Source of the DNA: Thermoleophilaceae bacterium
Lineage (GTDB): Bacteria > Actinomycetota > Thermoleophilia > Solirubrobacterales > Thermoleophilaceae
Assembly: GCA_036269895.1 (NCBI GenBank)
Contig: DATBDN010000004.1
Span: 4,759-68,758, forward strand
Length of the DNA stretch: 64,000 bases
Direction of reading: 5' to 3'
The notes below the pieces were generated by a model. The model was not told the DNA's origin. It saw nothing but the letters and a program-made list of their open reading frames with translations, and did no database searches. Positions 5,301-63,292 of the stretch are shown in pieces (position 1 is the first letter of the stretch; each line of letters opens with the position of its first letter). The translations under genes and the position numbers were made by a program.

Positions 5301-6713
5301 CGTCGGCGACGAGTTATTGGTCGGCGCGCCGCCGGTCACGACCGCGCTCGCCGGTGACGGCTTGTTGGCGGAGCCGGCGACGTTGCTGGCGCTGACGACG
5401 ACGCGCACGGTCTGGCCGACGTCGGCGCCGGCGACCGCATAGGTGTCTTGGGTCGCGCCAGTGATGTCGGCGCAGCCCGCGCCGCCGGAATCGCAGCGCT
5501 GCCACTGGTAGGCGTAGCTGAGCGGGGTCGTACCGCTCCAGCTGCCCTTGTCGGCGGTCAGCGTCTGGCCGGCCGCCGCGGTCCCTGCTAGCGACGGCGC
5601 CGCCGTGTTGGCGGGCGCCGTGCCGGCAACGGTCGCCGTCTGCCCCGAGGTCGCCGTCGAGTTGCCGGCGCTGTTCGTGCCCTTGACCTTTACCTGCAGC
5701 TTCTGGCCGACGTCCGGGCTCGTCAGCGCGTAGGTCGCGCCGGTGGCGCCGGAAACGTCGGCGCAGTTTGCGCCGGCTGAGTCGCAGCGCTGCCACTGGT
5801 AGCCGAACGTGATCGGGCTGAGCCCCGACCAGCTGCCGTCCGAGGTCGTCAGCATCTGGCCGTCCTGCGCCGTTCCCGTCAGCTGCGGCAGCGCCGTGTT
5901 GACCGGGAAGTTGGCGGCGTTCCAGTGCGCCTCGATCTGGGCGGCGCTGAGCGCGCTCGTGTAGAAGGCGACGTTCGAGAGCGAGCCCGCGAAGAGCGGG
6001 TCGCTCGTCGAGCGCGACTTACCGAGCCAACTGTTGGTCGTCGCGCCGAGCGTCGCCGGGTTGATCGTGGCGCCGCTCTGGCTCGCCGCGAGCGCGCCGT
6101 CGACGTAGAGGCGCAGCGTGCCGGCGCTGTCCTCGGTAACGGCGAGGTAGTGCCAGGCGCCAGCGGCGAGCGTCGTCGTGTCGACACTGAAGACGGTGCT
6201 CGAGCTCGAGCGGATCTCGAAGCGCAGCGGGTGATTGGTCGCCGTCGAGGCCGGCGTCAGGAACATGTAGCTCGTGTTCGACGAGCCGAAGTAGAAGACG
6301 CGCTGGTTGTACGAGGCGCCGCCGGTCCAGTTGACCCAGGCCTCGGCGCTGAAGGCGCTCGCGCCAGACAAGGGCGTTGACGGGATCGTCGCCACCGAGC
6401 TCGAGCCGTTGAAGCTCCCGGCCTTCGAGCCGCCGAACGGCCCGGCGCCGCCGAGCGTGATCGCGGTGTTGGTGGCGTTGCGGGTGCCGGCTGAATCGCT
6501 GAGGGTCGTGGCGCCGGCCGCCTCGTCGAAGCGGTACTGGGTCGCGGGACTGTCGCCCGCGACTGTGGTCTCGTAGGTCGTGTAGGGCTCGACCGGGCCG
6601 GACGCTGTCGCGGCGACGACGGCGAGCAAGGCGACGGCGAGGGCGGTAGCGAGGCCGAGCTTGCGCGTCCGTGCGAGCGCAGCCGTCAGCGTCCGGCGAA
6701 GACCAGCGAGCAT
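2325..6713 (-). CDS. 1462-aa secreted/anchored multidomain protein: N-terminal signal/TM, LamG (concanavalin-A-like) domain, 4 Ig-like repeats, repeated beta-helix-like modules, Cys-rich C-terminal domain
   Basis: Hydrophobic LGLATALAVALLAVVAATASG lies near the N-terminus. The LamG_3-like segment is FNGSSS..AEAWVNW..WHYLAVTEDSAGTLRLYVDGAL..GSLSNVAFY. Four ~95-aa repeats carry G.WSG..P..Y.YQW.RCD..G..C.DI.GAT..TY. Gly/Thr-rich ~160-aa modules are duplicated at 224-aa spacing. Confidence 0.9.
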   Translation of the reverse strand: MLAGLRRTLTAALARTRKLGLATALAVALLAVVAATASGPVEPYTTYETTVAGDSPATQYRFDEAAGATTLSDSAGTRNATNTAITLGGAGPFGGSKAGSFNGSSSVATIPSTPLSGASAFSAEAWVNWTGGASYNQRVFYFGSSNTSYMFLTPASTATNHPLRFEIRSSSSTVFSVDTTTLAAGAWHYLAVTEDSAGTLRLYVDGALAASQSGATINPATLGATTNSWLGKSRSTSDPLFAGSLSNVAFYTSALSAAQIEAHWNAANFPVNTALPQLTGTAQDGQMLTTSDGSWSGLSPITFGYQWQRCDSAGANCADVSGATGATYALTSPDVGQKLQVKVKGTNSAGNSTATSGQTATVAGTAPANTAAPSLAGTAAAGQTLTADKGSWSGTTPLSYAYQWQRCDSGGAGCADITGATQDTYAVAGADVGQTVRVVVSASNVAGSANKPSPASAVVTGGAPTNNSSPTISGGAQDGQTLTGDAGSWSGAAPISYAYQWRRCDSGGASCADIAGATSSTYVLVSADVGGTLRLAVTAANSGGSTTASSAATAVVGAAAPVNTRLPTLVGTPEQGQTTIVHRGAWGGTTPQTYSYQWRRCDASGASCADIAGATKTTYVVVAADVGNTLRAVVTASNSASPAGVSATSAASGVVAPAAAGSCTDVWNGRAGDGQWTTAGNWSASRAPGSSDRACAADGATIYVGDGATAGSLGGAAALDVSSHGTALTLADSQTASTVGSLTWHGGGISVAGTLTITSQLRALGDGSAWMTAYPGATLIVAPTATATVSGGTLSIDGATFRNQGTLTYTGGQIAGDNAGLLDNSGTLVLNGEGTALWYYPSGTRPQLRNTGVIRKSQGGATTTVEFAVDNEGTGTIDAQTGTLRFKGGGGAGQPAGGSWQAESGATVDFNGGSFYLGQSAQLIGHMLFDGGDATAGSIHGGALEANVNAPFLTLTDAQTGSTVDSLTWRGGGFGGAGPLTVASRLDAVGSGAWMTAYPGATLIVAPTATATVSGGTLSIDGATFRNQGTLTYTGGQILADKAALIDDPGTFTLNGSGNALDVYPSGPLPRLHITGTLRKSDASTTTVKIPVDNHGTVDVEAGALGIESLYDPQCSLTSPTGAWQAGGVLTFGMTPDQCLAPASLRTYGDGEIDIDSGTISTVTLDAPDGNIAINGGTLDLEGTSTASTLRNLKLFSGALTGSAELDICGSLYWTGGTMSGTGKTVLCPTNTGTIGGPTGGSVTLNRRWLVNRGDLTWSSGALQGLTGAIVSNVGTFRARSEAGAMDTGSGPELAALVNHGLLTKDQGSGTTRICFLRVNRPGSQTTVLSGSLSFCGSWNTRDNLQEDPNHCTLSTEGGEDLAPSGDEWLLILGATVDCDQPASFIRIRFFIEKVESTPSPPPPDWSCTNTQHCGPAFYSDNVNVVLGDRDCVTWEVKAYIEGGEEPEPVGDVACKEGVEKP
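3600..3739 (-). repeat. Copy 1 of a 140-bp perfect intragenic direct repeat
   Basis: Identical to 4272-4411. The offset is 672 bp (224 codons). It encodes ..AWMTAYPGATLIVAPTATATVSGGTLSIDGATFRNQGTLTYTGGQI in both copies. Confidence 0.9.
4272..4411 (-). repeat. Copy 2 of the 140-bp perfect intragenic direct repeat
   Basis: Same 140 nt as 3600-3739. The flanking module sequence is clearly diverged. Confidence 0.9.
4749..5894 (-). repeat. Four tandem Ig-like coding repeats (aa ~274-655 of the giant protein)
   Basis: Protein-level repeats each contain SWSG..P..Y.YQW.RCD..GA.CADI.GAT..TY.....DVG..L...V.A.N. Confidence 0.8.
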
Positions 6714-6979
6714 CCAAGCCCTCCTCGGTGCGGGACGGCCGCGGGCAGCCGCCGCAAGTCCAGATTCCGTCCCCGGCGCACCGAAAACGGATGATCTGTC
6801 GACGGTAACACCAGACGACGCGGTGTGGCATTTTTTGGGTAAGCAGCTTGTCTAGTGGGCGAACCCCGCCGCGCCGCGCGACGGACCAGGTGTCGCGTCG
6901 GACTTGGGCCGAGGCTCGGGGGCCACAATCCGATGCAGACGCAAGTGTCCGGTCATTGGCCGCCGATCTGTGCGACCTC

Positions 6980-55039: not shown

Positions 55040-55666
55040 TCAGGCGAGCAGACCCATCCGCTGGGCGCGCTGTACCGCCTCCGTCCGATTGCGGACCCCG
55101 AGCTTGCGAAACAGCCCGCTTGTGTGCTCCTTGACCGTGTTCGGCGAGAGGTAGAGGCTGCCGGCGATTTCGCGGTTCGTGGCGCCCGACGCCATCAGCT
55201 CGAGCACCTCGCGCTCGCGATCGGTCAGCACGAACGCGGGGCGATCGCTTTGCGGCGGGAACACGGTCTTGCCGAGCCCAACCAGGCGCACCGCACGCAC
55301 GATCTCGGTGCTCGACCAGTCCTTCGACACGAAGCCGGATGCGCCGGCGGCGCGCGCAGCGCTCTTCGAGATACGCCCCGCGCCGGAGATCAGGAGCACC
55401 TTCGGCGCCGGCGCCTCCTGGCGCAGGCGCTCGCAGATCTCGGCGCCCGACTCCTCGCCGACGAACAGGTCGACGAGCGCGACGTGCGGCTCGAAGCGGC
55501 GTGTATGTCCGATCGCCTCCTCGGCCGTGCGCGCGCTCAGGCAGCGCGTGACCCACGGCTGCTGGCTGAAGAGAAGCCGGAAGCCCCAGTGGACCACGTC
55601 GTGGTCATCCACGATCAGGATGGAGAGCTTGCGGCCGCCGTCTTCCACGACTGCCTCAGTCGCCAC
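55040..55666 (-). CDS. NarL/FixJ-family response regulator
   Basis: Receiver (ILIVDDHDVV.., VALVDLF) plus LuxR HTH (LTDREREVLELMASGATNREIAGSLYLSPNTVKEHTSGLFRKLGV). Confidence 0.9.
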   Translation of the reverse strand: MATEAVVEDGGRKLSILIVDDHDVVHWGFRLLFSQQPWVTRCLSARTAEEAIGHTRRFEPHVALVDLFVGEESGAEICERLRQEAPAPKVLLISGAGRISKSAARAAGASGFVSKDWSSTEIVRAVRLVGLGKTVFPPQSDRPAFVLTDREREVLELMASGATNREIAGSLYLSPNTVKEHTSGLFRKLGVRNRTEAVQRAQRMGLLA

Positions 55667-56810
55667 CCGTCGGCACCACCAGCCGAACCTGCCATTTATT
55701 GCCGTCGCGGGCGCCGAACTCGACGAAGCCGCCCACCTGCAGCGCCTCGAACGCAGCCAGGCGCAGGCCCATACCCGTCGATTGCGTCGCTCCTGAGCCG
55801 TTGACGCCGTCGTTGACGACCTCGAGCACGAACACGCCGTCGCGCCGGCCTGCGGTGACGGTTACGAGCGTCGGCTGCGCGTGCTTCTGGGCGTTGCGCA
55901 GGGCCTCGCGCAGGATGGACTGTGCAAGCGGCTCGAGCTCCGCGGGGACTTCCAGGTTCGAGTCGGGGTGCAGCTCGATGCGTGGCTTGGTGTTGCTGCG
56001 AGTGAGGCGCTTCACTTCTTCGGCGAGCGTGGTCGCGGTCGGCCGCGGCGTGCGGCCGAGCGGTTGCTGCACCACCGTCTTCAGCTCGCTGAGCGCGTGC
56101 TGGATCTCACCGGCTGCACGCCTGCGCGCCTCGGCCGGGAAGTCGCCCTGGGAGTCGAGAGCGAGCGACACACCGAACAGTCGCTGCACCACTCGCTCGT
56201 GTACCTCGCGGGCGATGTCGATGCGCTCCTGCAGTTCGCGCGCCCGCTGGCCCTCGAAAGTCGCTATGCGCGCGGCCGACGCCAACGCCGCCGTCTTGCC
56301 GAGCGTCCACAGCAGATGCTGCTCGCGCTGGTCGAGCGCGGCGCCGCTGCGGCGGTCGCACAGTGCGACGCCGATCCAGCGCCCGGCGGCGGCGAGCGGC
56401 ACGCAGACGAGCGTGCCGCCGTGGATGAGCGATCGGTAGCGCTCCGGGACCGCGTCCGGGTCCGGCGACTGAATCTCGATCACGGCGTCGCGCTCGAGCG
56501 CCTGGCGCGCGATCGGAGCCGACTCGACCGACACCTCGTCGTCGTGGAACAGGTTGATGTCGAGGTTGTGCGTGCCCGCCACCGTGACCCGGCGGAGGGC
56601 GTCGTCATAGCGAAAGAGCACCGCCCGGTCCATCGACGCGAGCGTGCAGATCACGTAGCAAAGTCGCCCGTAGAAGGCGTCCTGGCTTGTGCCCGCCTCG
56701 GCGTCCACGAGCACTTCGGCGAAGGCGTCGAGCGCTTCTATTGGGCCTGGTGGATAGGCGGCATTCATTGGCCTGGGCTCAGGGATTGACACATGGTCGC
56801 ACTTCGTCAT
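55656..56810 (-). CDS. Cytoplasmic GAF-domain sensor histidine kinase (HisKA_3 / HATPase_c)
   Basis: No TM segment. GAF-like N-terminal half. H-box IAREVHERVVQRLF. N/G boxes (REALRNAQKHA, GMGLR). It overlaps the regulator gene by 11 nt. The start may be ATG 56768. Confidence 0.85.
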   Translation of the reverse strand: MTKCDHVSIPEPRPMNAAYPPGPIEALDAFAEVLVDAEAGTSQDAFYGRLCYVICTLASMDRAVLFRYDDALRRVTVAGTHNLDINLFHDDEVSVESAPIARQALERDAVIEIQSPDPDAVPERYRSLIHGGTLVCVPLAAAGRWIGVALCDRRSGAALDQREQHLLWTLGKTAALASAARIATFEGQRARELQERIDIAREVHERVVQRLFGVSLALDSQGDFPAEARRRAAGEIQHALSELKTVVQQPLGRTPRPTATTLAEEVKRLTRSNTKPRIELHPDSNLEVPAELEPLAQSILREALRNAQKHAQPTLVTVTAGRRDGVFVLEVVNDGVNGSGATQSTGMGLRLAAFEALQVGGFVEFGARDGNKWQVRLVVPTGGD

Positions 56811-56884: not shown

Positions 56885-58024
56885 ATGGAGTCCGTGTTCA
56901 TCACGGAGCTTGACACGGACCGCGACGGTCTGACGCTGGCGGTCAAGGACCTGTTCGACACCGCCGGCATCCGGACGACCTACGGCTCGGCCATCTTCCG
57001 CGACCACGTCCCGGATGCGACCGCGTCCGCCGTGGCGCGGTTGGAGGACGCCGGCTACGTGAACGCGGGGAAAGCAAACTTGCATGAATTCGCCTGGGGC
57101 ATCACTTCAGAGAACGAGCACTATGGCTGGGTGCCGAACCCGGTCGCGCCGGGGCGGATCGCCGGCGGCTCGAGCGGCGGCTGTGCGGCCGCACTCGCAG
57201 CCGGGCTCGTGGACGCCGCACTTGGCACCGACTCGGGCGGCTCTGTCCGGATCCCGGCTGCGTGCTGCGGCATCACCGGCTTCAAGCCCACGTACGGGCT
57301 GATCCCACTCGACGGCTGCTTCCCGCTCGCCCGCAGCTACGACCACGCCGGGCCGATGGCTCGCGACGTCGCAGGGTGCGAGCGCATGATGGAGGCGCTC
57401 GTGCCCGGCTTCAGCGTGGCTGAGGTGGCCGTCGACGAGCTCGCGATCGGGGTCGCCTGGACCCAGCTCGCCGATCCCCTGGTGCGCGAACGGGTCGAGC
57501 GGGTGGCCGAGCTGCTGCCCGGCGCACGCTGGCTGGACGTGCCGCTGCCGCCGGGCACGGCCTACCCCGGCTTCCAGCGCGAGGCTGCCGAAGTGCACGA
57601 GCCGCTCTGGCGCGAACACCGCGATCTGTATGGCGAGAACGTGGCGACCAAGCTGCAGCGCGCGCTACGCGTGAGCGACGGCGACGTCGAGCGCGCCGCG
57701 CGCGAGCGGCAGCTCTACCGCGAGCGAGTGGCCGCCGCCATGGAAGGCGTCGACCTGCTGCTCACTCCCACGCTCACGATGGTCGCGCCGCCGGCCGGGG
57801 CCGGCGACCTCGCGCTGCGCGACTCGGTGCTACGGCTGACGCTGCCGTGGAACGCGGTCGGCGCGCCGGCACTCGCTTTTCCCTGCGGCCCAGCGGAACA
57901 CGGCCTGCCGGCATCGGCGCAGTTGGTCGGCCCGCCTGGACGAGACGCGCTCGTGCTTGCGGCGGGACACGCGCTGGAAGAGCGACTGCGTGCTCAGAGG
58001 GGCGGGGGCGGCGGCTCGCGGTAG
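56885..58024 (+). CDS. Amidase-signature family enzyme
   Basis: AVKDLFDTAGIRTTYGS, GGSSGGCAAA. The start is moved to ATG 56885. Confidence 0.85.
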   Translation: MESVFITELDTDRDGLTLAVKDLFDTAGIRTTYGSAIFRDHVPDATASAVARLEDAGYVNAGKANLHEFAWGITSENEHYGWVPNPVAPGRIAGGSSGGCAAALAAGLVDAALGTDSGGSVRIPAACCGITGFKPTYGLIPLDGCFPLARSYDHAGPMARDVAGCERMMEALVPGFSVAEVAVDELAIGVAWTQLADPLVRERVERVAELLPGARWLDVPLPPGTAYPGFQREAAEVHEPLWREHRDLYGENVATKLQRALRVSDGDVERAARERQLYRERVAAAMEGVDLLLTPTLTMVAPPAGAGDLALRDSVLRLTLPWNAVGAPALAFPCGPAEHGLPASAQLVGPPGRDALVLAAGHALEERLRAQRGGGGGSR

Positions 58025-58194
58025 CGCGACCCGCGGCCGAACTCGAGAAACAGGCCGAGGATCAGGCCGACGATGCCGACGACGATCAGGATCGTCCCGA
58101 CCGTCTGGATGTCGACGCCCGCGACCGTCGCGGTTACCGCGTAGTGCAGGATCGCGCCGATCGCGATCATCAGCAGGGAGCCTCCGATCGTCAT
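57994..58194 (-). CDS. Small two-TM membrane protein
   Basis: 66 aa: LLMIAIGAILHYAV.. and TILIVVGIVGLILGLFL. It overlaps the amidase 3' end convergently by 31 nt. Confidence 0.45.
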   Translation of the reverse strand: MTIGGSLLMIAIGAILHYAVTATVAGVDIQTVGTILIVVGIVGLILGLFLEFGRGSRYREPPPPPL

Positions 58195-58235
58195 GCCCCA
58201 CGAGCCTAACGTGCCCTGCCAGTAGCGTGCCGCCC

Positions 58236-59402
58236 ATGGAGAGACGAGGACCGTTGCAGGACGTCCGCGTGCTCGAGATCGCCGGAATCGGACCTGGCCC
58301 GTTTGCAGCGATGATGCTCGCGGACATGGGCGCCGATGTCCTGCGCCTCGACCGTGTTGGCGGCAGTGGGCTCGGCACGGGGCGCGCGGCCCTGCTTAAC
58401 CGCGGCCGCCCGTCCGCAGCCATCGACCTCAAGCATCCGGACGGCCGCGTGCTCGTCCTGCGGCTTGCCAAATCCGCCGACGCGCTGCTCGAGGGCTTCC
58501 GCCCGGGCGTGATGGAGCGCCTCGGGCTCGGCCCCGAGTCGCTGCTCGCAGCCAACCCACGCCTCGTGTACGGGCGGATGACCGGCTACGGCCAGGACGG
58601 GCCGCTCGCGCCGGTCGCCGGACACGACATCAACTACATCTCGATCGCAGGCGCGCTCGGCGCGATCCGGCGCGAGGACGAGCGTCCGCTCGCGCCACTC
58701 AACCTGGTGGCCGACTTCGGCGGCGGCGGGATGTTGCTGGCGTTCGGCGTCGTCTGCGCACTGCTCGAGGCGCGCATGTCGGGGCGCGGCCAGGTGGTTG
58801 ACGCTGCCATGGTCGAGGGGTCCGCGCTGCTGATGACGATGATCCACGGGATGCGCGCCCAGGGCATCTGGGACGGCGCGCCCGGCACGAATTGGCTCGA
58901 CAGCGGCGCGCACTGGTACGACGTCTACGAGGCCGCGGACGGCGGCCATGTCGCGGTCGGCGCGCTCGAGCCGCAGTTCTACGCGGAGCTGTTGAGGCTG
59001 ATGGAGCTAGACCCAGACGACCACCCGCAGTGGGAGCGGGATCGCTGGCCGGAGCTGAAGGAGCGGTTCGCCGCAGTCTTCCGCACGCGCACGCGCGCTG
59101 AGTGGGCGGAGCTGCTCGAGCGCGGTGACGCGTGCGCGACGCCGGTGCTGGAGCTCGAGGAGGCACCCGAGCATCCGCACAACGTCGCCCGCGAAGCGTT
59201 CGTGGCCGTCGACGGCGTAGTCCAGCCGGCGCCGGCGCCGCGCTTCAGCCGCACGCCCGGCGCAGTGCAGCGGCCGCCGGCGGAGCCGGGCGGCGACACC
59301 CGTGAGGCGCTAGCCGACTGGGGGCTCGAGCGGGCCGAGATCGAGGCGCTGCTCGAGAGCGGCGCGATAGCCGAGGCGGCGGTCAGCGCGCGACGAGCGT
59401 GA
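58236..59402 (+). CDS. Family III CoA-transferase (CaiB/BaiF; alpha-methylacyl-CoA racemase-like)
   Basis: GPLQDVRVLEIAGIGPGPFAAMMLADMGADVLRLDR, GHDINYI. The start is moved to ATG 58236. Confidence 0.85.
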   Translation: MERRGPLQDVRVLEIAGIGPGPFAAMMLADMGADVLRLDRVGGSGLGTGRAALLNRGRPSAAIDLKHPDGRVLVLRLAKSADALLEGFRPGVMERLGLGPESLLAANPRLVYGRMTGYGQDGPLAPVAGHDINYISIAGALGAIRREDERPLAPLNLVADFGGGGMLLAFGVVCALLEARMSGRGQVVDAAMVEGSALLMTMIHGMRAQGIWDGAPGTNWLDSGAHWYDVYEAADGGHVAVGALEPQFYAELLRLMELDPDDHPQWERDRWPELKERFAAVFRTRTRAEWAELLERGDACATPVLELEEAPEHPHNVAREAFVAVDGVVQPAPAPRFSRTPGAVQRPPAEPGGDTREALADWGLERAEIEALLESGAIAEAAVSARRA

Positions 59403-59410
59403 AGCGTTCG

Positions 59411-59443
59411 GTTCACAACTTGTTCACGACATGTTCACGTCGG
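59411..59443 (+). promoter_or_regulatory. Three direct GTTCAC repeats at exact 11-bp spacing (PHO-box-like, PhoP/OmpR-family site)
   Basis: GTTCAC occurs at 59411-59416, 59422-59427 and 59433-59438. The units are GTTCACAACTT / GTTCACGACAT / GTTCACGTCGG. They lie directly upstream of the CHAD operon. Confidence 0.5.
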
Positions 59444-59475
59444 CAGGGCTTTCCTGTTGCAAGATTTGGCCGTCT

Positions 59476-61011
59476 GTGTCCCTAGACGACCTCGAGTACC
59501 TCCCCCCTTCCGAGTTCGACCTGACCACGGTCGCGGAGCGCCTGCCTGCGCCGTTGCACCTCGACGGCGCTGAGTCTCAGAGCGGCGAGCGCGCCTTCTA
59601 CGACACGTTCGACCGGCGCCTGCGTGGCAAGGAGCTGCGACTCGTCCACGAGAACGGCTACCTGCGGCTGTTCGGTCCCGGCCGTGAGCTCGCGTCGGTC
59701 TCCTGGTCGTCTCCGTCCGAGACGATCCGCTGCAACGAGCTCGATGCCGGGCCGTTGCGCGACGCGATCGCGCCTGTCTGCGAGGTGCGCGTGCTGATGC
59801 GCACCGCACGCGTGCGCAGCGACCGTCGCGTTACGCCGGTGCTCGACGAGGAGGGCAAGACAGTCGCGCGACTCGTGACCGAGCACGCCGCGGTCGTCGA
59901 TGGCTCCGGCGCGAGCGCGCTGCGGCCGCGGCTACGGCTAGTAGGCGTGCGTGGATACGACAAGGAGCTCGGCCGCGTGCGTGGCGTGCTCGAAGACCAG
60001 TTGGAGCTGACGACAGCGCCCGAGCCGCTCGAGGACGAGGCGGTAATCCGCACGAGCGGCGCGCCGGCGTTCGCTTCGGACTCCGACGTCGAGCTCACGC
60101 CCGACATGCCGGCCGACCGGGCAGCCCAGGCGCTGTCGCTGCGGCTGCTGGCGGTGATCGAAGCGAACGTGCCGGGCACTCTCGCGGACCTCGACACCGA
60201 GTTCCTGCACGACCTACGCGTGTCGGTGCGCCGGACGCGCTCGCTGCAGCGCGAGCTGAAGAAGGTCTTCCCACCGGATGAGCTCAAGCGCTTCCGCGCG
60301 GACTTCAAGTGGATCCAGCAGGTCACGGGGCCGACCCGCGACCTCGACGTGTACCTGCTCGAGTTCGACGAGTTCGCGGCGACGGTGCCGGAGGCCCAGC
60401 GCGCAGACCTTGATCGCCTGCGCGACCTCTTGGCCGACCACCGCACGGCGGAGCGGCGGGCGATGGAAGCCGCCCTGCGCTCGGAGCGGATGACGAGCAC
60501 GCTCCGCGACTGGGAGGCGCTCCTGAAGCGCCTGCCAACCGAGGTGGTCGACGACCGGCCGTTCGGCGTCATGCCGATCAGCGAGGTGGCCGCCCGCCGC
60601 ATCGACAAGGTCTACCGGCAGATGGTCAAGATGGGCAAGGCGATCGACGACGACAGCCCGCACAGCGACCTGCACGAACTGCGCAAGAAAGGCAAGGAGC
60701 TGCGCTACCTGCTGGAGTTCTTCTCCCCGCTGTTCTCGAAGCGGGTGACCAAGCCGATGGTGCGCACGCTGAAGGCGCTCCAGGACACGCTCGGGCGCTT
60801 CCAGGACCGCGAGGTGCAGGTGGCGATGATCCGCGAGGCGGCGTCGGAGGTCGGCCCGCGCGAGGGTGGCTCGCAGGCGCTGATGGCAATGGGCGTCCTG
60901 GTAGAGCGCCTCGAGGAGCAGCAGGACGCTGCACGGGCAGAGTTCCACGACCGGTTCGAGGCGTTCTCGAGCTCTGAGCAGCGCGCACTCGTGAAGAAGA
61001 CGTTCGGATGA
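59476..61011 (+). CDS. CHAD-domain protein with degenerate CYTH-like N-terminal domain
   Basis: FYDTFDRRLRGKELRLVHE (CYTH-like strand, no ExExK). CHAD helices with conserved HDLRVSVRRTRS, TGPTRDLDV, HELRKKGKELRYLLEFF. The start is moved to GTG 59476, because ATG 59431 lies inside the repeat array. Confidence 0.8.
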   Translation: MSLDDLEYLPPSEFDLTTVAERLPAPLHLDGAESQSGERAFYDTFDRRLRGKELRLVHENGYLRLFGPGRELASVSWSSPSETIRCNELDAGPLRDAIAPVCEVRVLMRTARVRSDRRVTPVLDEEGKTVARLVTEHAAVVDGSGASALRPRLRLVGVRGYDKELGRVRGVLEDQLELTTAPEPLEDEAVIRTSGAPAFASDSDVELTPDMPADRAAQALSLRLLAVIEANVPGTLADLDTEFLHDLRVSVRRTRSLQRELKKVFPPDELKRFRADFKWIQQVTGPTRDLDVYLLEFDEFAATVPEAQRADLDRLRDLLADHRTAERRAMEAALRSERMTSTLRDWEALLKRLPTEVVDDRPFGVMPISEVAARRIDKVYRQMVKMGKAIDDDSPHSDLHELRKKGKELRYLLEFFSPLFSKRVTKPMVRTLKALQDTLGRFQDREVQVAMIREAASEVGPREGGSQALMAMGVLVERLEEQQDAARAEFHDRFEAFSSSEQRALVKKTFG

Positions 61012-61769
61012 CGAGCGTTCTCGCGACCTACAACATCAAGGGCGGCGTCGGCAAGACCTCGACGGCGGTCAACCTGGCGTACCTCGCAGCCTCAGGCGGC
61101 GCTCAGACACTGCTGTGGGACCTCGACCCGCAGGGCGGCAGCACCTTCCTGTTCCGGGTCAAGCCGCACGTGAAGGGCGGCGCGCGCAAGCTCGTGCGCG
61201 GGAAGAGCGACGTGGACGCGCTGATCAAGGGCACCGACCACGAGCGACTCGACCTCCTGCCCGCCGACTTCTCGTACCGCCACATGGACCTGGCGCTGGC
61301 CGACACGAAGAAGCCCACACGGCGTCTGGCGCGTGTGGTCGAGCCGCTGCGCGACAGCTACGACTACGTATTCCTGGATTGCCCGCCAAGCATCTCGCTC
61401 GTGTCCGAGGGCGTGTTCGAGGCCGCCGACGCGCTGCTGGTGCCGCTGGTGCCCGCGACGCTGTCCTCGCGGACGTTCGACCAGCTGCGCGACATCGTGT
61501 CGAACGGGGACGGCGGCCCTCAAGTGCTTGCGTTCCTGTCCATGGTCGACCGCCGCAAGCGCCTGCACCGCGACCTGACGCAGAGTCTTCAGGCGGACTA
61601 TCCGGAAGTGCTGCGCGCGGGCATCCCGGCGGCCAGCGACGTCGAGCGGATGGGCGCCTACCGCACTGTGATCGAGGCGTTCGCGCCGCGCAGCCGAGCG
61701 GCTCAGGCGTACCGCGACCTCTGGGTCGAGATCGGCGAGCGCCTGGAGCGACCACAGGCGTCGCCGTGA
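61008..61769 (+). CDS. ParA/MinD-family P-loop ATPase (orphan, no ParB nearby)
   Basis: Deviant Walker A NIKGGVGKTS, YVFLDCPPS (Walker B region). ATGA overlap with the CHAD gene and GTGA overlap with the next gene. Confidence 0.85.
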   Translation: MTSVLATYNIKGGVGKTSTAVNLAYLAASGGAQTLLWDLDPQGGSTFLFRVKPHVKGGARKLVRGKSDVDALIKGTDHERLDLLPADFSYRHMDLALADTKKPTRRLARVVEPLRDSYDYVFLDCPPSISLVSEGVFEAADALLVPLVPATLSSRTFDQLRDIVSNGDGGPQVLAFLSMVDRRKRLHRDLTQSLQADYPEVLRAGIPAASDVERMGAYRTVIEAFAPRSRAAQAYRDLWVEIGERLERPQASP

Positions 61770-63217
61770 CCAAGGCCGACCAGGTCGAGCGCGAGCTCAA
61801 GCTCGGCGCCTGGCCTGAGTTCGTCCTCCCAGACCTGAACGGCTTCGTCGACGGCGCCAAGCCCGGCGAGCCGGAGCGACACGATCTCGACGCCGTCTAC
61901 TACGACACGCCGGACCTCAAGCTCCTGCGCCGCGGGGCCACGCTGCGCTTCCGCCGCGGCGAGCCGCCGAGCGACCTGTGGACGGCAAAGCTCCCCTCCG
62001 ACGCGTCGGCCCAGGGCCTCGCGCGGCGGGAGATCAGCGTGTCAGGCCGCCGCGACGTCGTGCCGAAACAGTTCGTCGACGTGATGCGCGGCTGGGCGCT
62101 GGGGCGTGCGCTGCGACCGGTGGCTCGCGTCTCCACGACGCGCGAGGCGATACCGCTCTGCGACGACGGTGGGCGCATGCTGGCGACGATGGACGACGAC
62201 ACGGTCACGGTGCGGCGCGGGCGCCGCGTGGTCGCGCGCTTCCGCGAGCTCGAGGTCGAACTGGTCGGCGACGCGCCTGCGGAGATCCTCGGCGCCATCG
62301 ACGAGGCCTTGCGCTCGGCCGGGGCCGAGCACGTCGCGCAGATCCCGAAGCTGACGCGTGCGCTCGGCCGTGAGGCAGCGCTGCCCTGGGACCTCGAGGT
62401 GCCGCCACTGGGCTCGAAAACGACGATGGCGCAGGCGGCGCAGTCCCGCTTGCGGGTCAGTGTCGCGCACCTCGTCGACCTGCATGCGCCGCTCGTGCTT
62501 GACGCGGAGGACAGCGCGCAGCGCGCGCGCGATGTGGTGCAGGCGGTGGGCGCCAAGCTCGACCTGTTTGCGGCGCTGCTCGAGCCGGAGCAGTCCGAGC
62601 CGATGCGCGAAGAGCTGCGCCGGCTCGACAATGACCTAGCCCGGGTCGCGGAGCTCGACGCGCTGCTGGCCCGCGCGCCCCAGGCGAGCGACGCACGCAA
62701 GCTGTCGGCTCGCTTGGGCGACGCGCGCGCACGCGCGCACGCGACGCTGCTCAGGTCGCTCCGGGCGCGGCCTTACGTCGCGCTGCTCGAGCGCCTGGCG
62801 GAGATAGCGACCAAGCCGCCGCTGGAAACCGACGCGGGGCGTCGTCGCGCCGCCCCGGCCGCAGGCAAGTTCGTTCGCCCGTTGTGGCGGGAGCTTCGCC
62901 ACGAGGAGGAGGCGCCCGCGCGGCGGGTCGCGAAACTGGAAGCAGCGGTGGAGCTGGCAGCCGCAGTGCTCGACGAGGAAGCGCAGCCGGCGCTCGAGCG
63001 GGTGCGTGAGCTGCGAACGCTCATCGCCGAACACGACCGCCTGCTCGCAATGGCGCGCAGGCTGCGGGCGATCAGGCGCCGCCTCGATCCAGACGAAAGC
63101 TGGGCAGCAGGAATGCTCGCCGGCACGGCGGCGGCGCAGGCGGACGCGATCCGCGCGCGCTTCCCGGCCGTGTGGCAGAACGCGGCCGACAAGGCGATCT
63201 GGAACTGGGCGGACTGA
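61766..63217 (+). CDS. CYTH-domain (triphosphate tunnel metalloenzyme) plus CHAD-domain protein
   Basis: VERELKL (ExExK), YYDTPDLKLLRRGATLRFRR, RELEVEL, then an Arg-rich helical CHAD region. The start is set at GTG 61766 within the longer track ORF. Confidence 0.85.
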   Translation: MTKADQVERELKLGAWPEFVLPDLNGFVDGAKPGEPERHDLDAVYYDTPDLKLLRRGATLRFRRGEPPSDLWTAKLPSDASAQGLARREISVSGRRDVVPKQFVDVMRGWALGRALRPVARVSTTREAIPLCDDGGRMLATMDDDTVTVRRGRRVVARFRELEVELVGDAPAEILGAIDEALRSAGAEHVAQIPKLTRALGREAALPWDLEVPPLGSKTTMAQAAQSRLRVSVAHLVDLHAPLVLDAEDSAQRARDVVQAVGAKLDLFAALLEPEQSEPMREELRRLDNDLARVAELDALLARAPQASDARKLSARLGDARARAHATLLRSLRARPYVALLERLAEIATKPPLETDAGRRRAAPAAGKFVRPLWRELRHEEEAPARRVAKLEAAVELAAAVLDEEAQPALERVRELRTLIAEHDRLLAMARRLRAIRRRLDPDESWAAGMLAGTAAAQADAIRARFPAVWQNAADKAIWNWAD

Positions 63218-63292
63218 CCGAGGCTGCGGCACTGTCGGCGCGAACCCGCTAGAACTCCCTAACGCGGAGGCGTTAGCGGCTTGGGGGAGTCG

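Follow-up and report, generated by a model that had tools for sequence, protein, structure and literature searches.

The window analysed here is a 64,000-nucleotide (nt) stretch of contig DATBDN010000004.1 from a Thermoleophilaceae bacterium (assembly GCA_036269895.1). At positions 59411–63217 of this window, within a genome of 70% G+C, three overlapping plus-strand genes follow a short direct repeat. The first gene (g1) encodes a protein with CYTH-like and CHAD domains, the second (g2) encodes a ParA/MinD-type ATPase, called ParA below, and the third (g3) encodes a CYTH–CHAD protein; relative loci carry L-numbers. The pair formed by the first two genes, and its possible role on polyphosphate (polyP) granules, is the subject of this text. 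The features of the locus are as follows.

59411..59438, + strand: upstream repeat of three GTTCAC hexamers, a candidate response-regulator operator
59476..61011, + strand: g1, 511 amino acids (aa), phosin-like, with a CYTH/TTM-like N-terminal domain (N-domain) and a 'long' CHAD domain
61008..61769, + strand: g2, a 253-aa ParA/MinD-family ATPase with a deviant Walker A motif
61766..63217, + strand: g3, a 483-aa CYTH–CHAD protein with an intact ExExK motif and a divergent CHAD domain

The three genes are connected by start/stop overlaps, in agreement with the original prediction, which was made from the letters of the sequence. The g1 stop and the ParA start share ATGA at 61008 (context ggATGAcg), and the ParA stop and the g3 start share GTGA at 61766 (context ccGTGAcc). 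The same operon is present on three independent Joint Genome Institute (JGI) metagenome contigs, where the gene calls are 511, 253, and 483 aa. The alternative g1 start at ATG 59431, which was favoured earlier and yields 526 aa, is replaced by GTG 59476 as most likely the true start of a 511-aa product, because ATG 59431 falls inside the third GTTCAC repeat, alignments with the homologues begin only at about residue 16, and the JGI and database gene calls are 511 aa. None of g1, ParA, and g3 is matched by an NCBIfam model above its cut-off.

The synteny of the locus was scanned with the ParA protein as the query against one genome per GTDB species, giving at least 467 confirmed relatives, the best 80 of which (59–76% identity) were fetched as loci. 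These 80 loci derive from Solirubrobacterales/Thermoleophilaceae, Acidimicrobiales/Microthrixaceae, Streptosporangiaceae, Propionibacteriaceae, Myxococcales, and Gammaproteobacteria. A g1 homologue, mostly with both the N-domain and the CHAD domain, is situated directly 5' of ParA on the same strand in 66 of the 80 loci, one locus (L002) begins at a contig edge, and 13 loci are without g1. Furthermore, g1 also lies 5' of ParA in every one of the extra loci sampled beyond the 80, and when g1 homologues are taken as the starting point instead, the next gene is again ParA, overlapping g1 by 4 nt. The g1/ParA junction in the 57 loci with an intact single-frame g1 is formed by a 4-nt overlap (41 loci), a 1-nt overlap (5 loci), or a gap of 1–10 nt (6 loci). 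The pair is distributed over Thermoleophilia, Acidimicrobiia, Actinomycetes, Myxococcota, and Gammaproteobacteria, that is, at least three phyla; the actinobacterial and myxobacterial carriers include Streptosporangiaceae, Propionibacteriaceae, and Myxococcales, and the gammaproteobacterial carriers include Sedimenticola, Endoriftia, and Thiodiazotropha. Its range thus runs between actinobacteria of the soil and proteobacteria that oxidise sulfur. Between Actinomycetota and Gammaproteobacteria, the identity is 59–66% for ParA and approximately 36% for g1. Meanwhile, the flanking genes switch entirely between lineages, and g1–ParA alone persists.

Solirubrobacterales flanks: arg cluster
Sedimenticola flanks: PepN
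Endoriftia flanks: PPK2, PPi-PEPCK, and FolD
Flanks in another gammaproteobacterium: HSP20
Flanks in the Thermoleophilia relative L083: pstB-phoU-NUDIX

In Solirubrobacterales (e.g., L011, L016, L033, L047, and L095 1–8108), the gene order is argC-argJ-argB-argD-[g1-ParA]-argG, and the pair may be co-transcribed with the arg genes. In L083, pstB-phoU is located upstream of the pair, and in Endoriftia PPK2 is located within 6 kb. No ParB-family Pfam match is present in any annotated relative locus, and no carboxysome (cso/ccm) gene is present in any examined locus. Two further candidates for a constant neighbour were rejected. A polyP kinase or phosphatase as an obligate neighbour was negative in neighbour clustering and occurs only sporadically, and a conserved third partner 3' of ParA dissolves into argininosuccinate synthase (the ~420-aa open reading frame (ORF) of Solirubrobacterales) and unrelated genes in the other lineages. 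It is the g1–ParA pair that is conserved as a unit, and the tricistron is not. The synteny between ParA and CHAD genes expected in the original prediction is thus found for the first gene in 66 of the 80 species-level loci; for g3 it extends to the closest relatives and one further locus (L010).

Within the Solirubrobacterales sequences, the 13 loci lacking g1 group as a single monophyletic clade (L013, L017, L020, L023, L026, L027, L028, L034, L044, L048, L059, L060, and L073). Judged from these sequences, the clade is a single derived ParA duplication that was relocated beside a PHP-type phosphoesterase. The paralogues are 64–71% identical to the window ParA and lie at about 6001–6740 in most of the loci. 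In at least seven of them, a ~250-aa PHP-type CpsB/CapC-like phosphoesterase (HFHLLPGIDDGP) is the next gene on the same strand. The paralogue often has a gene for a large zinc-ribbon protein divergently upstream. The CpsB-like phosphatase prompted an assignment of ParA as a bacterial tyrosine kinase (BY-kinase), which was rejected, with tyrosine-autokinase models scoring 38 bits, far under the cut-off of 108, and no C-terminal tyrosine cluster. Phosphoesterase genes (CpsB_CapC and Metallophos) are also found just 3' of g1–ParA in L083 and L081.

The g1 protein consists of a CYTH/TTM-like β-barrel (residues ~1–195) and a 'long' CHAD domain (residues ~210–511). Pfam assigns CHAD to residues 239–467 (E = 1.9e-56) and gives no match in the first ~220 residues. 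The AlphaFold2 (AF2) model, built from 34 sequences, has a predicted local distance difference test score (pLDDT) of 90.5 and a predicted template-modelling score (pTM) of 0.81. The closest structural counterpart is the CHAD protein of Chlorobium tepidum (CtCHAD; 6qv7/6qva), matched at E = 1e-42 in the PDB sequence search; on 6qva, the CHAD–polyP complex, the modelled CHAD domain superposes in Foldseek with a template-modelling score (TM) of 0.92 and a root-mean-square deviation of 2.0 Å. Six family invariants of g1, H245, R248, R252, R288, R410, and Y411, correspond to H253, R256, R260, R296, R418, and Y419 of CtCHAD, and the motifs around these contact residues hold across phyla. Mutation of any of these six residues in CtCHAD lowers the polyP affinity 6- to 150-fold, and CHAD domains, biochemically specific for polyP, show no binding to nucleic acids and do not conserve the metal-binding histidines (PMC6537752). 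With all six central-cavity residues kept, g1 has, in sequence and model, the features of a polyP-binding CHAD protein.

The N-domain of g1 presents the CYTH-like fold in a degenerate form, as the original prediction had stated. The whole g1 model matches E. coli YgiF (5a60) in Foldseek at E = 1.5e-8, and for the N-domain, thiamine triphosphatases and CYTH cyclases are retrieved at E~1e-3 and TM~0.5. Pfam CYTH gives no match on g1, ExExK is present in none of the 17 displayed orthologues from three phyla, and LRxR is replaced by LVHE, LLHD, or LEQE in the orthologues. Simultaneously, the DTFD, RAL, KT, and VRGY motifs of this domain are conserved across phyla; since the domain is conserved though its catalytic motifs are gone, it appears to be kept for a non-catalytic role. 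The N-domain family comprises 813 representatives at 50% identity (E ≤ 1e-3), with full-length members of ~510–550 aa. Two long N-domain matches (P0369 and P0379) were considered as fusions and rejected, as they look like frameshifted or mis-called ORFs. The C-terminal LVKKTF tail of g1 is specific to Thermoleophilia. Within the pair, g1 is proposed to be the granule-binding adaptor and the partner of ParA.

The second protein is assigned, from its sequence and its model, to the ParA/MinD deviant Walker A superfamily with a Soj/MinD-like fold. Its NIKGGVGKTS deviant Walker A, WDLDPQG switch, and FLDCPPS Walker B motifs are invariant across the 39 actinobacterial and gammaproteobacterial members in which the subfamily invariants were judged. 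Pfam detects AAA_31 (E = 3e-32) and CbiA (E = 3e-11), and the best NCBIfam model, ParA_partition, reaches 79.8 bits against a cut-off of 180. The PDB sequence matches include M. xanthus ParA (8ray, E = 3e-21), Soj (1wcv), and McdA (6non, E = 1e-10). The AF2 model (pTM 0.84) retrieves 377 PDB matches in Foldseek at E ≤ 1e-3, with Soj/ParA at TM 0.80–0.85 and McdA at TM 0.76–0.78. The protein has neither an N-terminal extension nor a MinD-like C-terminal amphipathic membrane-targeting helix. Among the neighbours annotated with Pfam in the window (amidase, CoA-transferase, and CHAD proteins), no ParB gene is found; the earlier description of an orphan ParA/MinD ATPase with a KGGVGKTS motif stands.

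Two private invariant blocks distinguish this subfamily, namely, block 1 at D87-F88-S89-x-R91-x-x-D94-L95 (DFSYRxMDL) and block 2 at P127-S128-x-S130-L131-V132-S133-E134 (PPSISLVSE). In M. xanthus ParA, the ParB-peptide pocket is built from helix H4 (D110, T112, G113, E117, and L118) and a Walker-B-proximal loop, L150–L152 (PMC12462528). In the alignment with 8ray, blocks 1 and 2 coincide with this helix (D110–L118) and this loop, respectively. Both blocks are invariant from actinobacteria to gammaproteobacteria and differ from the corresponding residues of chromosomal ParA; at the sequence level, an ATPase that has a conserved partner of its own would be expected to show such a pattern. The segment equivalent to H4, which is the most distinctive family invariant of ParA (residues 89–104, encoded at 61272–61319; DFSYRxMDL...KKPT), has a pLDDT below 50 in the monomer model and may fold only in the dimer or in the complex with a partner. 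In addition, R183 is invariant and aligns with the 'DxR' DNA-binding arginine of Soj and M. xanthus ParA.

The third protein has a CYTH domain above the Pfam cut-off (E = 9e-10) and a CHAD match at E = 2.8e-8 (34.5 bits), with ERELK as its ExExK motif at residues 8–12 (VERELKL at 7–13) and YYDTPDLKLLRRGATLRFRRG for the YxDTxD...LRxR motifs. It finds no match in the PDB sequence search. Direct BLASTP between g1 and g3 gives no match, and hhalign between the two families aligns 414 columns with a probability of 97% and E = 7e-11. From this family-level alignment, g1 and g3 are considered distant paralogues across both domains. The g1 contact residues H245/R248/R252 and R410/Y411 face the non-basic residues D/E/Q and E/A in g3, respectively. 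The degeneration is reciprocal: g3 keeps ExExK and the CYTH arginines without the polyP-contact residues of CHAD, and g1 shows the opposite. Because its CYTH motifs are kept and its CHAD contacts are lost, g3 is best read as a YgiF-like tunnel hydrolase, probably acting on triphosphate or short-chain polyphosphate as predicted from its sequence. The original assignment of g3 as a canonical CYTH plus CHAD protein holds for CYTH and ERELK; the CHAD domain is degenerate. Among 94 loci, g3-like genes are confined to L081, L082, L092–L094, and L010 (Ca. Solirubrobacter pratensis), the last with a divergent copy next to g1. As a conserved part of the system, g3 was rejected, as tblastn and a hidden Markov model of g3 relatives find only the closest relatives and L010. 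The earlier picture of a ParA sandwiched by two granule-binding proteins is thereby abandoned, g3 being lineage-specific and its CHAD domain lacking the polyP-contact residues.

Upstream of g1, positions 59411–59438 (GTTCACaacttGTTCACgacatGTTCAC) contain three perfect direct GTTCAC hexamers with an 11-bp period (GTTCAC-N5-GTTCAC-N5-GTTCAC), the repeat units being GTTCACAACTT, GTTCACGACAT, and GTTCAC. Within the window, this exact triple occurs only here, and 0.02 occurrences are expected even when three mismatches are allowed; the pairwise pattern has 2 matches vs 0.26 expected. L081, the locus with a ParA 89% identical to that of the window, keeps GCTCAC/GTTCAC/GTTCAC at an equal distance from the g1 start and retains ttgttgcaagatttgg after the repeats, again at an equal distance from GTG, despite a different upstream gene. 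The repeat is absent 5' of g1 in 62 other loci, and as a family-wide feature the operator was ruled out, being found in the window and L081 only. A -10-like hexamer, CAAGAT, is located at 59460–59465; the last GTTCAC would overlap the expected -35 position relative to it, and a transcript from such a promoter would be leaderless or nearly so. A generic sigma-70 consensus scan detects no promoter. PHO boxes in Streptomyces comprise two or more direct repeats of an 11-nt unit, whose core is of the GTTCAC type, and overlap the -35 region. The triple presumably resembles these PhoP PHO boxes, a consensus that is from Streptomyces, the host here belonging to Thermoleophilia; a candidate PhoP/PHO-box-like operator is a reasonable lead. 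The operon may be under a phosphate-type response regulator through this triple operator as a lineage-specific addition. Of the phosphate-type promoter in the original prediction, the triple repeat and its retention in L081 remain, and its generality beyond these two loci does not. Overall, the earlier observation is confirmed and its interpretation is partly supported, both g3 and the GTTCAC operator being additions particular to this lineage.

From the sequence comparisons and the models, we lean towards the view that g1–ParA is a cargo-specific ParA/MinD-type system that positions or partitions polyP granules. In the proposed mechanism, g1 would coat or dock onto the granules through its intact CHAD domain, and ATP-sandwich dimers of ParA would bind to a matrix in the cell, for which the nucleoid is the most likely candidate. 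The g1 protein would contact the ParA dimer at the pocket used by ParB peptides in chromosomal ParA, probably through its catalytically dead CYTH-like domain, and this contact would stimulate ATP hydrolysis. The granules would then chase a self-generated ParA gradient, resulting in their spacing along the cell and sharing between daughters, as McdAB does for carboxysomes. In the Thermoleophilaceae genome, the translationally coupled g3 would add a probably active tunnel hydrolase for triphosphate or short polyP. In a bolder variant, ParA would use polyP itself, not DNA, as the polyanionic matrix.

Several observations weigh against this positioning system. The second Soj DNA-binding arginine, which we take to be R218 in B. 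subtilis numbering, aligns with Asp211 of the window ParA, and a conserved R214 lies three residues on; with one of the two Soj arginines aligned, nucleoid binding is uncertain. No g1–ParA fusion occurs among the 150 best N-domain relatives, and no conserved basic N- or C-terminal peptide of the ATPase-stimulating kind is found in g1 across phyla. Neighbour clustering does not place polyP synthesis genes consistently adjacent to the pair. The ParA paralogue clade lives without g1, beside the PHP phosphoesterase, so the ATPase is re-usable in another context. Furthermore, deletions of phosin-like genes in several organisms do not substantially disrupt granule formation (PMC13081873). The evidence for the system is wholly genomic and structural; from it we infer the g1–ParA interaction, the identity of the matrix, and the effect on the granules.

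That g1 and ParA work together on polyP in some manner is very likely, and the positioning system has its nearest competitor within this common ground. Here, the pair also acts on granules, and ParA is an ATP-dependent switch or assembly factor, controlling nucleation, number, size, or the binding and release of g1 on polyP, instead of a positioning ratchet; ParA might then bind polyP rather than DNA as a polyanionic surface. The same synteny and coupling data apply to such a switch, the half-conserved arginine pair of Soj fits it, and a polyP polyanion could occupy the basic DNA-binding patch. BcsQ and FlhG/FleN, structural matches at TM 0.70–0.76, exemplify organisers of the family that do not segregate. 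However, these rank below the closest relatives, the chromosome-segregating Soj/ParA and then McdA, the partner-pocket architecture is kept, and the membrane-targeting helix is absent, so that we regard the switch as rather unlikely, with some weight left to it.

A role of the pair outside polyP organisation, in copper homeostasis or in CYTH-like nucleotide or triphosphate signalling with ParA as a generic regulator, is improbable. It draws on the copper sensitivity of an E. coli ygiF mutant and its complementation by a CHAD protein of A. ferrooxidans that is encoded next to parA (PMC10892726). An RND efflux transporter adjoins the pair in Sedimenticola L061, and phosphoesterase genes (Metallophos and CpsB_CapC) recur near the pair or the paralogue. 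Against such a role, the polyP specificity of CHAD and its unconserved metal-binding histidines (PMC6537752) are joined by the retained polyP-contact residues of g1 and the missing catalytic residues of its CYTH-like domain, and the Acidithiobacillus neighbourhood contains no metal-resistance genes (PMC10892726). Far less probable still is a mere hitch-hiking or inherited adjacency, in which ParA would be an ordinary orphan or a chromosome- or plasmid-partition ATPase. In Solirubrobacterales the pair does sit in a vertically inherited arg cluster, and the synteny within this order largely reflects shared ancestry. Across phyla, however, the pair alone persists as the flanks change, start/stop overlaps occur in 46 of the 57 loci, no annotated locus has an adjacent ParB, and the ParA, which scores under every NCBIfam cut-off and has private motifs that do not vary, forms a subfamily of its own.

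Around the operon in the window, the 5' neighbours are an amidase and a family-III CoA-transferase (Pfam). The CoA-transferase ORF (57957–59402, + strand, 481 aa) probably starts near 58250, because the Pfam domain covers only residue 100 onward. On the opposite strand, a 66-aa membrane ORF lies at 57994–58194 (- strand); a 65-aa minus-strand gene between the amidase and g1 in L081, with a weak DUF6458 Pfam match, resembles it. Upstream of the amidase, a 384-aa ORF (55656–56810, - strand) resembles a sensor histidine kinase on visual inspection. At the other end, a perfect 7-bp hairpin (CTAACGC-GGAG-GCGTTAG) is located at 63259–63276, 42 nt past the g3 stop, and the next ORF begins at ATG 63293. 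This hairpin gives no evidence for a terminator, having no T-run and lying in a region that folds no better than shuffled sequence (z = 0.98), and a generic terminator scan detects no intrinsic terminator. In the relative locus L095, a 4-nt overlap joins g1 to the aminotransferase gene upstream of it. In Streptosporangiaceae-type loci (L062, L068, L070, L071, L074, and L080), two small lineage-conserved genes flank g1–ParA, the upstream one encoding a ~200–300-aa protein with the N-terminus MAELLI(L/V)VV...RKLRARARQM and the downstream one a ~170–190-aa protein with MSRRLIRLEMPVFPDRRMFRVHD; these could be lineage-specific accessory components.

The spacing and inheritance of polyP granules is an acknowledged question of the field, which the pair makes testable. 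AlgP is the only known polyP positioning factor, and the machinery and ATP-dependence elsewhere are described as unknown in two 2025 reviews and a 2026 preprint (PMC13081873); in the 2025–2026 reviews, Caulobacter, E. coli, and cyanobacteria are named as bacteria in which the positioning machinery and its ATP-dependence are unknown. The literature searched consists of open-access papers and preprints in full text, including reviews of 2023–2026, and within it no ParA/MinD ATPase for polyP granules is described, as the original prediction had supposed. Neither polyP nor CHAD appears as a ParA/MinD cargo in a 2023 survey and a 2024 review. For Acidithiobacillus, a 2024 study of CHAD and copper gives 'folD, ppk, parA and CHAD' as a gene context that is conserved, the ppk being ppk1; its sole remark on ParA is that the protein partitions plasmids, and the adjacency is left uninterpreted (PMC10892726). 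This is probably the same pair as g1–ParA, because the FolD, PepN, and RND transporter context resembles that of Endoriftia and Sedimenticola. The chances are about even that the pair is the first dedicated, ATP-driven system for positioning or partitioning polyP granules, widespread and with an adaptor made of a dead triphosphate-tunnel domain and CHAD. What is new for the ParA/MinD cargo systems is the adaptor type and, probably, the cargo; if true, an inorganic-polymer organelle joins the cargo list as a candidate new class. Phosins would simultaneously gain a candidate function, that of cargo adaptor, and g1 would exemplify a CYTH domain retained for something other than catalysis. The pair is present in the cultured organisms Sedimenticola selenatireducens, Solirubrobacter soli, and S. 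deserti, in Acidithiobacillus according to the literature, and in the polyP-relevant symbionts Endoriftia and Thiodiazotropha.

Compared with known systems, g1 shares the 'long' CHAD domain with an intact basic cavity with the phosins (R. eutropha PptA-type, CtCHAD, and YgiF), and its CYTH plus CHAD architecture is the same as in E. coli YgiF. However, the CYTH-like domain of g1 has neither ExExK nor the LRxR arginines, and its gene is coupled to ParA. Phosins are universal granule proteins, and polyP binding is the only function assigned to them so far (PMC13081873). AlgP of P. aeruginosa and PhaM/PhaF/PhaH address the same problem, the even spacing and inheritance of storage granules along the nucleoid, each as a single DNA-binding tether of the histone H1 type for which no ATPase is known. 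Unlike these tethers, g1–ParA would be driven by ATP and has no H1-like repeats.

Chromosomal ParA/Soj proteins provide the best sequence and fold matches to the window ParA (8ray, 1wcv/2bek, and HpSoj), with the same size, no N-terminal extension, and common Walker A, A', and B motifs and 'DxR' arginine. The identity is ~27–29%, and the residues of the ParB-peptide pocket are replaced by subfamily invariants; in contrast to ParABS, g1–ParA has no ParB and no oriC-type context. McdA/McdB is likewise a two-gene module of a small ParA/MinD ATPase and a non-ParB partner whose target is an organelle based on protein or mineral instead of DNA, and the proposed logic is alike, with a nucleoid-bound ATPase gradient and adaptor-stimulated hydrolysis. 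The cyanobacterial McdA reportedly lacks the classical signature lysine, which the window ParA keeps (KGGxGK[ST]). The g1–ParA pair has no McdB-type partner and no carboxysome genes, which separates it from McdAB, and its gene order is adaptor first and then ATPase, unlike that of McdAB. McdB is disordered or coiled-coil, whereas g1 is an unrelated, folded CYTH-like/CHAD adaptor, and the cargo of McdAB is the carboxysome, whereas that of g1–ParA would be the polyP granule.

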